Positions 19,027 to 20,744 of a stretch of 64,000 nucleotides of DNA are shown here, one piece after another. Every line of letters starts with the position of its first letter. Positions within the stretch are counted from its first letter, which is position 1. The notes beneath the pieces were generated by a model, which made no database searches, was not told the origin of the DNA, and saw only the letters and a program-made list of their open reading frames with translations. The DNA is from Capsulimonadaceae bacterium (GTDB lineage: Bacteria; Armatimonadota; Armatimonadia; Armatimonadales; Capsulimonadaceae), in NCBI GenBank assembly GCA_965215505.1, contig OZ244065.1, forward strand, positions 1,664,001 to 1,728,000. The letters are read 5' to 3'. The translations under genes and the position numbers were made by a program.

Positions 19027-20628
19027 TCAGGCGACCGCGAAGTCGCTCATGACGTTCGGCGTTGCGGTCGAGAACCCGACCACGTCCATCATGCCCGCGT
19101 CGTCGGGGTCGGCGATGGTGAATTTATTGGACACCATGCCGCAGACGATCAGCTTGGCCGGGATGCCCATGCGCTCCCGGTACAACCGCAGGGCCTGGAC
19201 CGGCTGGATGTTCCCCGCCCACGTCTCCGAGTCGGTGTAGACGACGAACACGTCCGCTTCGACCTTGTTCTTCAGCGCCCAGACCATCGGCAGGGCGCAG
19301 TCGGTCCCGGCGAAGGGCAGACCGCTGACCGTCTTCAGCACGTCGTCGAGCCGCTGGCGCGGGCTGATATTCAGCGGCATGAACGTCGTCGAGAACGCCA
19401 TGAACCGGTGACGCGCCTCGGTCGCCGCCGTGATCAGGGCCATCGCCGCGCTGGCGACGCGCGGCGTCAGGCCCGGAACGCCCGCGATCTGACCGCCCTC
19501 CATCGAGCCGGACACGTCCAGGGCGAGCAGCCACCGCTGGCCGGTCGGCGTGACGTTGCCGAACGAGGCGTAGAACGCCGCGTCCAGGGCGTCCACGATG
19601 GCGGGGACCGGCGTCCAGCTATTCCCACCGCGCTCGCCATGCCCCTGGGCATAGGTCTTCAGGGCAGACAGGACCTGAATCGGATGGACCCGCGCCTTCC
19701 GCAGACGCGCCCCGTCGGTGATCTGCGCGGCCACCTTCTGAGTCTCCGGCCCCATCGAAGTGAGCAGGCCCACCCGCGTCAGGGTCGCCAGGTTGCGGAT
19801 GAGCGCCGTCATCGGCATCTCCTCCAGCAAGGCCTCCCAGACGAACGGGTCGGTGAGCCACTGCGTCGGGACCGCCTCACGCGGCAGCCGGTACTCGCGA
19901 ACGAGTGCGGCGACCTGCGCCGCCGTCTCTGCCGTTTTGACCCGCTCCGATGCCCAGACCAGCCGCAGGGCCGGGTCCGGGTGGGGCATCTCGCCGACCG
20001 ACTCCCACCCCTGGGTCAGCCAGTGGTAGAGCGCGAAGTGCTGCTCCGTCGCGGGCTTCGGGTGCGAGAGCCGCAGCAGGTCGCGGTGGCTCCAGCCGTC
20101 CCGCTGCCCGTACTTGACCGCCTGGTAGGCCAGCCTGTCGGCGGGCATCTGGGCGTACCAGTTGCCGACCGCCTGCCGCAGCCCGCGGCCCCAGCCGCGC
20201 ATCCCGTCCACATACTGCGCGAAGTGGAACAGGTGCGTCCCGATCCGTGCCACGACCGGCAGGGCCGCCAGCGCCTTCCGGCGCGTGTCCTCGTCGCCGA
20301 GTGCAGCGCACATGGCGAGTGCGAACAGGGCGGGGTCGTTCTTCGGCGCGCGCCCGGCCTCGGACACGGCGACGATCTCGCGTACGACGCGCGGGCCGTC
20401 CGCGCCGATGCACCGCTTGACCGCCTCGGCGTTCTCCAGCGTCAGGGTCGTCTCGCCCGCGTAGAACGAGCCGCCCTCGGTTCCCAGCGCGAGGAATCGT
20501 GCCAGCCGCGTCCAGTCGTCCACGGCGAAGGTGAACCCGCCCGCGCTGTTCGCGACCTGGGCCGAGCCGGGGATGGGCCGGCTCTGCGGCGTCACTTTCT
20601 TGTTAAAAACCGTCTTCAAGTACGTCAT
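19027..20628 (-). CDS. rsr: Ro60/TROVE-domain RNA-binding protein (Rsr)
   Basis: NSAGGF..VDDWTRLARFLALGTEGGSFY, KYGQRDGWSHRDLLRLSHP, MPMTALIRNL, vWA MIDAS LDVSGSM, TDSETW; ATG at 20628 follows an AAAGGAG RBS. Confidence 0.96.
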   Translation of the reverse strand: MTYLKTVFNKKVTPQSRPIPGSAQVANSAGGFTFAVDDWTRLARFLALGTEGGSFYAGETTLTLENAEAVKRCIGADGPRVVREIVAVSEAGRAPKNDPALFALAMCAALGDEDTRRKALAALPVVARIGTHLFHFAQYVDGMRGWGRGLRQAVGNWYAQMPADRLAYQAVKYGQRDGWSHRDLLRLSHPKPATEQHFALYHWLTQGWESVGEMPHPDPALRLVWASERVKTAETAAQVAALVREYRLPREAVPTQWLTDPFVWEALLEEMPMTALIRNLATLTRVGLLTSMGPETQKVAAQITDGARLRKARVHPIQVLSALKTYAQGHGERGGNSWTPVPAIVDALDAAFYASFGNVTPTGQRWLLALDVSGSMEGGQIAGVPGLTPRVASAAMALITAATEARHRFMAFSTTFMPLNISPRQRLDDVLKTVSGLPFAGTDCALPMVWALKNKVEADVFVVYTDSETWAGNIQPVQALRLYRERMGIPAKLIVCGMVSNKFTIADPDDAGMMDVVGFSTATPNVMSDFAVA

Positions 20629-20640
20629 CGTCTTTGTCTC

Positions 20641-20662
20641 CTTTCGGCCCCAGTGGGGCAAG
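20641..20662 (-). promoter_or_regulatory. Ro-binding-site-like hairpin overlapping the rsr Shine-Dalgarno
   Basis: RNA CUUGCCCC-acu-GGGGCCGAAAG runs into GAG of the SD; same motif as in the Y RNAs. Confidence 0.6.
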
Positions 20663-20665
20663 TGC

Positions 20666-20744
20666 CGGACAGGCAAGGGGTGCGCCTGGGTGTTGGTTTT
20701 CTGGTTTCAAGAAGAGTGTTAACCCAAACACTTCGGCCCGTCCG
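20666..20744 (-). ncRNA. Y RNA, linear type (unit A)
   Basis: 5' CGGACGGGCCGAAG-UGUUUGGGUUAAC...CUUGCCUGUCCG 3'; the termini base-pair. Confidence 0.8.

Follow-up and report, generated by a model that had tools for sequence, protein, structure and literature searches.

A hairpin resembling the Ro-binding helix of Y RNAs lies on the rsr ribosome-binding site and is a candidate site of autoregulation

Background

Ro60, its bacterial orthologue Rsr and their Y RNAs have been studied for decades, from the human autoantigen to bacterial RNA decay. We know of no account of how a cell balances Ro60 or Rsr against its RNAs. An rsr locus in the genome of a Capsulimonadaceae bacterium raises this question directly: a short hairpin stands over the ribosome-binding site of rsr, just behind an array of Y-type RNA genes. 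Is this hairpin a copy of the Ro-binding helix, and could Rsr control its own synthesis through it? The window analysed here is a stretch of 64,000 nt (contig OZ244065.1 of assembly GCA_965215505.1, positions 1,664,001-1,728,000); the feature lies on its minus strand, and positions are those of the window unless stated otherwise.

Results

The rsr gene and its start codon

The gene and the elements that precede it, all on the minus strand, are the following:

19027-20628, minus strand: rsr, a Ro60 orthologue of 533 amino acids with TROVE and vWA_Ro60 domains (domain search)
20628-20626, minus strand: rsr start codon AUG (alignments of orthologues)
20637-20629, minus strand: spacer of 9 nt between the Shine-Dalgarno sequence and the AUG (read from the sequence)
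20644-20638, minus strand: Shine-Dalgarno sequence AAAGGAG, which shares the last four bases of the hairpin 3' strand
20651-20641, minus strand: hairpin 3' strand GGGGCCGAAAG, with C20646 bulged
20654-20652, minus strand: hairpin loop ACU (read from the sequence)
20662-20655, minus strand: hairpin 5' strand CUUGCCCC, the counterpart of the 3' strand of the Y RNA Ro-binding helix

The nearest solved relatives of this Rsr are Xenopus Ro60, human RO60 and the Deinococcus Rsr. A genome-wide TROVE search, in which the D. radiodurans control also has a TROVE gene, finds rsr as the only such gene in the genome; pdxS converges on it from the downstream side. Since the proteins of 28 of the 30 rsr loci read in relatives align from residue 1 (L020 from residue 2 and L024 from residue 3), the AUG at 20628 is, by orthologue alignment, the real start of rsr. 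The genome itself (6.18 Mb, 66.5% G+C) uses Shine-Dalgarno sequences: in a set of 4348 long open reading frames, four-letter Shine-Dalgarno words are most frequent at -12/-11 relative to the first ATG and occur at -20 to -5 in 1265 frames, as against 535 at a control distance. AGGAG before rsr is thus a plausible Shine-Dalgarno sequence in this genome.

A hairpin that runs into the Shine-Dalgarno sequence

Read as RNA, the minus strand from 20662 to 20626 is CUUGCCCC-ACU-GGGGCCGAAAGGAG-ACAAAGACG-AUG. The hairpin is held by five core pairs (C20655-G20651, C20656-G20650, C20657-G20649, C20658-G20648 and G20659-C20647), beyond which C20646 is bulged and the helix goes on with U20660-G20645 and then U20661-A20644. 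There is no upper stem and no GGUUAUC; the loop of 3 nt closes the side that is 'terminal' in a Y RNA, and the Shine-Dalgarno sequence and the AUG come next. The match to the last upstream Y RNA, here called unit A, ends at 20666, so the gap to the hairpin is 3 nt (GCA). The sequence-only reading from which this analysis started had placed the hairpin 3 nt downstream of unit A and let its 3' strand run into AAAGGAG; the minus-strand sequence is exactly as it was written there, and the overlap with the Shine-Dalgarno sequence is read at 20644-20641.

The folding energy of the hairpin is ordinary (z -1.25; seven folds span -1.25 to +1.08) and does not stand out above shuffled sequences. In centroid folds the Shine-Dalgarno sequence is mostly unpaired and hardly covered by the hairpin RNA. 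Since the RNA alone leaves the Shine-Dalgarno sequence largely open, a protein would be needed for a block of initiation.

An array of Y-type RNAs upstream of rsr

Eight Y-type units, four canonical Y hairpins and four tRNA-like RNAs, lie upstream of rsr on the same strand, and the two kinds alternate:

20745-20666, minus strand: canonical Y RNA, unit A (RF01656 match of 30 bits, below the gathering score of 38)
~21727-21630, 21417-21351 and 21218-21102, minus strand: further canonical Y hairpins (sub-threshold matches to RF01656, the nematode stem-bulge, or Y-type, family)
21567-21443, 21344-21236, 21059-20959 and ~20915-20770, minus strand: tRNA-like units (the last delimited by eye only)

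The Ro helix of unit A is formed by ACGGACGGGCCGAAG and CUUGCCUGUCCG, and the unit carries GGUUAAC. In the tRNA-like units a closed Ro-binding module with GGUUAUC replaces the anticodon arm and loop. The remainder of these four units keeps the topology of a tRNA, with D and T arms and an open acceptor stem (two end in CCA). Published YrlA RNAs show the reverse arrangement, in which the acceptor stem is closed and the Ro helix is built from the termini (available part of 10.1101/312249). The Rfam tRNA model matches two of the tRNA-like units; ARAGORN reports zero tRNAs between 20000 and 22500. Because units with tRNA topology alternate with canonical hairpins, tRNA-processing enzymes could release every unit.

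Nothing resembling a promoter or a terminator was found when the interval that separates rsr from the array was scanned, and the scan for promoter-like sites did not find a promoter of the array itself. Further upstream, a long GC stem followed by a U run (~22150-22105, minus strand) comes after a small open reading frame and resembles an intrinsic terminator; it lies behind a strong promoter-like site at 22403-22374 (TTGACA, 18 nt, TATCAT). The scan missed this stem, probably owing to its large loop.

Two further observations concern the end of the array. The junction GUCCG-GCA-CUUGCC (20663-20677 in the window; also L002-L011 and L025) is identical throughout the genus, in which Rsr identity goes down to 77%. 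Such invariance suggests a constrained cleavage site or the stacking of two Ro helices. In four loci the canonical Y unit nearest to rsr has shrunk to a minimal hairpin without an upper stem, with strands in the normal order (GGGCC, a few U, UGCCUG), which directly precedes the leader hairpin or the Shine-Dalgarno sequence; these are L005, L010 and L014, where it spans about -60 to -38 relative to the rsr start, and L094.

The leader hairpin shares the core of the Ro-binding helix

The leader hairpin has the core of the Ro helix of all eight upstream units: five pairs, a bulged C on the GGC-C-G strand and a U-G pair. In neighbouring units the helix reads, for instance, CGGGC-C-G opposite UUGCCUG, and the strand order of the leader is that of the tRNA-like units. 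When the window was scanned without filters with a covariance model built on the leader (R1), the leader itself scored 52.7 bits and was followed, at 12.9 and 12.6 bits, by Ro modules from two of the tRNA-like units. The suggestion that the hairpin copies the permuted Ro module without its GGUUAUC part thus agrees with the model, whose best matches in the window after the leader are the modules of the tRNA-like units. Over all 77 rsr loci described below, the extra R1 matches are likewise mostly Ro modules of tRNA-like units.

Which bases carry this likeness can be narrowed down. The motif of bacterial Y RNAs has been given as GNCGAAN0-1G (Chen et al. 2014; PMC4201824, available part), and GCCGAAAG of the leader matches it. 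All 48 leaders with the element retain its GNCG part; in the second lineage (see below) most have GA or GG in place of AA. The Y RNAs of these genomes also differ among themselves in the two bases that come after GGCCG, so the constancy of these bases in leaders is best credited to the Shine-Dalgarno sequence; the GAAAGGAG part is probably conserved as such and not as a Ro motif. The likeness therefore rests on about ten bases and the bulge. Of the GGCCGAA-type resemblance proposed earlier, the GNCG part and the bulge hold in all 48 leaders, and the A-rich tail probably does not belong to it. A review describes the bulged C, in the part available, as the primary determinant of Ro60 binding (PMC4030889). 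In the leader, C20646 is bulged between a G-C and a U-G pair, so that the conserved bulged cytosine of the Ro60 helix is present.

Compared with the Ro modules of Yrn1, YrlA and YrlB (available part of PMC4201824), the leader shares the bulged C on the G-N-C-G strand; it also lies within a Y RNA locus, on the rsr strand, with the local strand polarity of the array's Y units. It differs from these RNAs in not being a small stable RNA closed by its own ends, in being closed by a loop at the end that in a Y RNA is formed by the termini, in lacking an upper stem, effector loop and GGUUAUC, and in being embedded in an mRNA leader over a Shine-Dalgarno sequence. We considered the leader hairpin as a Y RNA and rejected this: a Y RNA is a small stable molecule whose own termini pair to form the helix and which has an effector loop or domain, features that the leader hairpin lacks, and for this reason it is not filed as one. 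The closed modules of the tRNA-like units (21303-21277, 21037-21000 and others) share with it the order of UUGCC strand, loop and GGCCG strand, the core and the bulge. They continue, however, into a second stem and GGUUAUC inside a tRNA-shaped RNA, whereas the leader copy ends at the helix and runs into the Shine-Dalgarno sequence.

Conservation of the hairpin in orthologous leaders

We read 77 rsr loci, which are non-independent samples insofar as their genomes are related. They come from three sets:

Relatives: rsr in 35 of 61 genomes; 30 loci read; 21 with the element; without it or unclear in L015, L016, L020, L023 and L026-L030
Even sample of the phylum: rsr in 35 of 151 genomes; 22 new loci; 4 with the element (L090, L100, L107 and L109); 18 without it or unclear
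Second lineage (the family of the genome that holds L050): rsr in 31 of 61 genomes; 25 loci; 23 with the element; without it or unclear in L129 and L139

The element is found at the rsr start in 48 of the 77 loci: 25 of 52 in several families of Armatimonadota (the four from the even sample represent three further families) and 23 of 25 in an unrelated family of large genomes (4-13 Mb), the second lineage. An alignment of rsr 5' UTRs across genomes had been proposed as a check on the sequence-only reading, absence of the hairpin from orthologous leaders being taken as evidence against it; with its recurrence in 48 of 77 loci from two unrelated lineages, this comparative prediction holds strongly, and the reading as a whole is partly supported.

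The motif is absent in the other 29 loci. Five of these (L015, L016, L026, L028 and L029) have a different GC hairpin at the ribosome-binding site without the motif, and it might therefore be the hairpin as such that matters. Inspection by eye did not show the motif in records of Planctomycetota, Actinomycetota, Chloroflexota, Gemmatimonadota and others (L041-L063 minus L050 and L051), in several of which the protein match stops short of residue 1, such that the true leader may have been missed. Viral contigs contain two rsr loci; the leader of the one read (L113) has another hairpin and no motif.

The pairing was first assessed in a MAFFT alignment of 27 leaders (A2) that is not fitted to the structure. 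In this alignment 96.8% of cells are paired, 13 cells show double changes, and none of 500 shuffles reaches either value; slid controls pair in 32-76%. The bulged-C column is invariant, and the top pair changes among C-G (16), G-C (8) and U-A (3). A MAFFT alignment of the second lineage alone, with four rows misaligned, gives 83.2% paired, a value that 129 of 500 shuffles match or exceed, with G-C (11) and A-U (7) at the top pair. Because this alignment has misaligned rows and does no better than shuffles in percent paired, a fitted table of all 48 leaders was also made, in which a script chose the best-pairing 5' strand for each leader and which is therefore biased towards pairing. In the fitted table the five core pairs and the bulged C are present in 48 of 48 leaders. 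The core is nearly fixed in sequence (P2 is C-G in 48 of 48; P1 is G-C in 46, the other 2 having G-U), either U-G (29) or C-G (19) follows the bulge, and the outer pair covaries (C-G 16, G-C 18, U-A 3, A-U 8); the loops, 3-21 nt long, show no sequence relationship. Across lineages, R1 finds 6 of 23 leaders of the second lineage, two of them training sequences, and a model trained on the second lineage (R2) finds 0 of 25 Armatimonadota leaders.

The position of the hairpin is held relative to the gene that follows. Of the 48 leaders, 44 have GGCCG at a distance of 10-17 nt from the start codon; the exceptions are L017 and L018, with 21 nt, and L107 and L109, with 28 nt. Among the 23 second-lineage leaders, 16 use the G after the bulged C as the first G of GGAG. 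The distance back to the nearest upstream RNA gene, measured by eye, varies: members of the window's genus have 3 nt, other genera 1-20 nt, L024 ~60 nt and the second lineage roughly 15-30 nt. Since the spacing to the start codon is held while the upstream gap varies, the element is tied to the ribosome-binding site and not to the upstream RNA gene. Thus the pattern of conservation across these leaders, namely a fixed core and bulge, a covarying periphery, a free loop and a fixed spacing, is as expected of a protein site over an initiation region.

Chance resemblance

The words CTTGCC and GGCCGAA occur in this order within 5-40 nt of each other 43 times in the 6.18 Mb genome, and for this reason one genome alone cannot exclude chance. 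Chance is excluded by the comparison of orthologous leaders. In its own genome the leader is also the only strong R1 match (52.7 bits; the next scores 21.7 bits), and being both unique there and conserved elsewhere, the element is taken to be real. In the 61 relatives, R1 gives 20 matches of at least 32.5 bits, all at rsr starts; since these come mostly from the training set of the model, they show specificity and not discovery.

Weaker R1 matches were set aside. Those in the own genome, at 21.7 bits or below, resemble a generic hairpin with a Shine-Dalgarno sequence. Matches in G013 and G016 (32.3 and 28.2 bits) lie inside a histidine-kinase open reading frame, and nine matches in the phylum sample (24-31 bits) do not adjoin rsr.

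The second-best of these in the own genome, outside the window (C1:4677821-4677860, minus strand; 21.2 bits), reads UUUGCCCC-ACA-GGGGCGGAAAGG and then AUG. It is a hairpin of the leader type without the bulged C, before an open reading frame with a signal-peptide-like start, and is probably due to chance.

Copies before an HNH gene and the possible mobility of the locus

In the second lineage a mini hairpin of the same kind also precedes an HNH endonuclease gene (Pfam HNH) downstream of rsr, with R1 scores of 30.8 and 22.7 bits. The HNH gene is present in 11 loci, 9 of them distinct (L050/L115 and L051/L118 are duplicate pairs). The mini hairpin lies 17-23 nt before the HNH start in 4 loci and about 60-76 nt before it in 3; none was seen before the HNH gene in L050 and L051. 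In addition, a free-standing copy occurs in the array of L136. Copies before HNH genes and free-standing copies indicate that the module is reusable, which fits a small Rsr regulon and equally fits processing or the protection of mRNA 5' ends.

As to the surroundings of these genes, the HNH gene (L136, 411-1013; L128, 317-910, minus strand; also L138, L129, L116, L139 and L135) stands behind further tRNA or tRNA-like units. In L050 (1508-2437 and 4465-4966) rsr is surrounded by at least 15 matches to the tRNA model that reach the Rfam gathering score, an array which recalls the tRNA islands of phages; no GGUUAUC-type Y RNA was found in the 1.5 kb upstream of this rsr.

The Rsr of the window shares 59-65% identity with those of the unrelated large-genome family but only 50-56% with those of several families in its own phylum. 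These identities suggest that the rsr cassette may have been transferred between phyla.

Discussion

A candidate operator for negative feedback

The leader hairpin combines three features of an operator: it lies in the ribosome-binding site of its own mRNA, it resembles the RNA ligand of Rsr, and it is conserved in orthologous leaders. To our knowledge, the only protein that reads this helix is the product of the gene that follows, Rsr. Our favoured reading, to which we give about an even chance, is that the hairpin is an Rsr-binding operator that provides negative feedback on rsr translation. The Y-type RNAs and rsr would be made from one precursor, and Rsr would first fill the high-affinity Y RNAs. 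Surplus Rsr would then bind the leader site, which lacks an upper stem and GGUUAUC and is predicted to have lower affinity. The 60 kDa ring of Rsr, covering the helix and the Shine-Dalgarno bases immediately 3' to it, would keep the 30S subunit off, and Rsr synthesis would thereby be matched to the supply of Y RNAs. Processing of Y RNAs upstream of rsr from a common precursor has been described for M. smegmatis and D. radiodurans (PMC4201824, available part).

Autogenous operators that mimic the ligand of their regulator are familiar from ribosomal protein operons, threonyl-tRNA synthetase, phage coat protein and RegA. As in those systems, a copy of the ligand site stands on the regulator's own ribosome-binding site, and surplus protein is predicted to block initiation; the rsr locus differs in that the genes of the ligand, the Y RNAs, appear to be co-transcribed with the regulated mRNA. 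We know of no such operator for Ro60 or Rsr, and file the leader hairpin, by candidate function, as a putative new case of the ligand-mimic translational operators. The full-text literature that we searched, from which subscription journals are mostly missing, holds no report of feedback control of rsr or of a Y-like element in its leader and no paper that links Armatimonadetes with a Y RNA. The part of the bacterial Y RNA paper available to us (PMC4201824) describes no rsr-leader element.

A different outcome would follow if Rsr bound the hairpin for the processing or protection of the RNA, either shielding the mRNA 5' end from 5'-end-dependent nucleases or marking a cleavage site, with a positive or neutral net effect on Rsr. 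Several observations point this way: in the window's genus the hairpin lies 3 nt past the last Y RNA, across the invariant GUCCG-GCA-CUUGCC junction; in three HNH leaders it is far from the start codon; in L136 and L116 it directly follows the preceding tRNA-like unit; and Y RNAs need Rsr for stable accumulation (available part of PMC4201824). The spacing in the second lineage argues the other way, as roughly 15-30 nt (by eye) separate the tRNA-like unit from a hairpin that is still on the Shine-Dalgarno sequence. Bacterial mRNAs can carry stabilising stem-loops at their 5' ends, and the leader hairpin resembles these in its small size, its GC pairs and its place close to the 5' end of a processed mRNA. 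Such a stabiliser would, however, be expected at the end of the RNA and not on a ribosome-binding site, and the leader differs from stabilisers in its sequence-invariant core and bulge and in being fixed to the Shine-Dalgarno sequence rather than to the RNA end. On balance we regard processing or protection as a rather unlikely function.

The hairpin might also act without any protein, tuning initiation by pairing with part of the Shine-Dalgarno sequence or insulating the ribosome-binding site from the folded RNAs upstream, its likeness to Y RNAs being left over from duplication of a Ro module. Loci without the motif often have another GC hairpin beside the Shine-Dalgarno sequence, generic matches of the type 'GC hairpin + Shine-Dalgarno + AUG' occur before unrelated genes, and an alternative register, in which CUU pairs with AAG up to the first G of GGAG, is compatible with most leaders. 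The Ro register, however, preserves the pair after the bulge in 27 of 27 leaders, the alternative in 20 of 27. Although an unpaired base destabilises a hairpin, the bulged C is present in 48 of 48 leaders, and the core is kept in sequence and not merely in pairing. With centroid folds that leave the Shine-Dalgarno sequence open and energies equal to those of shuffles, a purely structural role appears unlikely. Finally, the hairpin could be a free-standing 'mini Y RNA', an Rsr ligand released from the precursor, or a site for another factor of the Y RNA pathway that stands before rsr as a by-product of the short intergenic space; free-standing copies in arrays, copies far upstream of HNH starts and the minimal canonical-order hairpins that replace unit A in L005, L010, L014 and L094 are in keeping with this, but the distance to the rsr start stays within 10-17 nt in 44 of the 48 leaders from both lineages, against a variable upstream gap, and release would cut the mRNA inside its own Shine-Dalgarno sequence, which makes it very unlikely.

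Implications for Rsr and its RNAs

The reading of the hairpin as an Rsr operator can be carried further, and here we are doubtful, though the idea deserves to be set out: Rsr may be a sequence-specific translational repressor with a small regulon, acting through a portable 'mini-Y' operator of 20-30 nt that in some lineages also controls an HNH gene, within a cassette that is mobile between phyla. If so, the mini-Y operator, made up of five pairs, one bulged C and a wobble pair, would set the level of Rsr against the supply of co-transcribed Y RNAs, and the mobile cassette would consist of tRNA-like Y RNAs, operator, rsr and HNH.

A conserved copy of the binding site on the rsr ribosome-binding site would offer a simple and directly testable answer to how Rsr and Y RNAs are kept in balance. 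The leader also defines a candidate minimal natural Ro-binding hairpin of ~22 nt, which may be useful for binding and structural work. In addition, it suggests that mRNAs with Y-like helices can be targets of Ro-type proteins and, should the wider proposal be true, Ro60 proteins generally could read such helices inside mRNAs.
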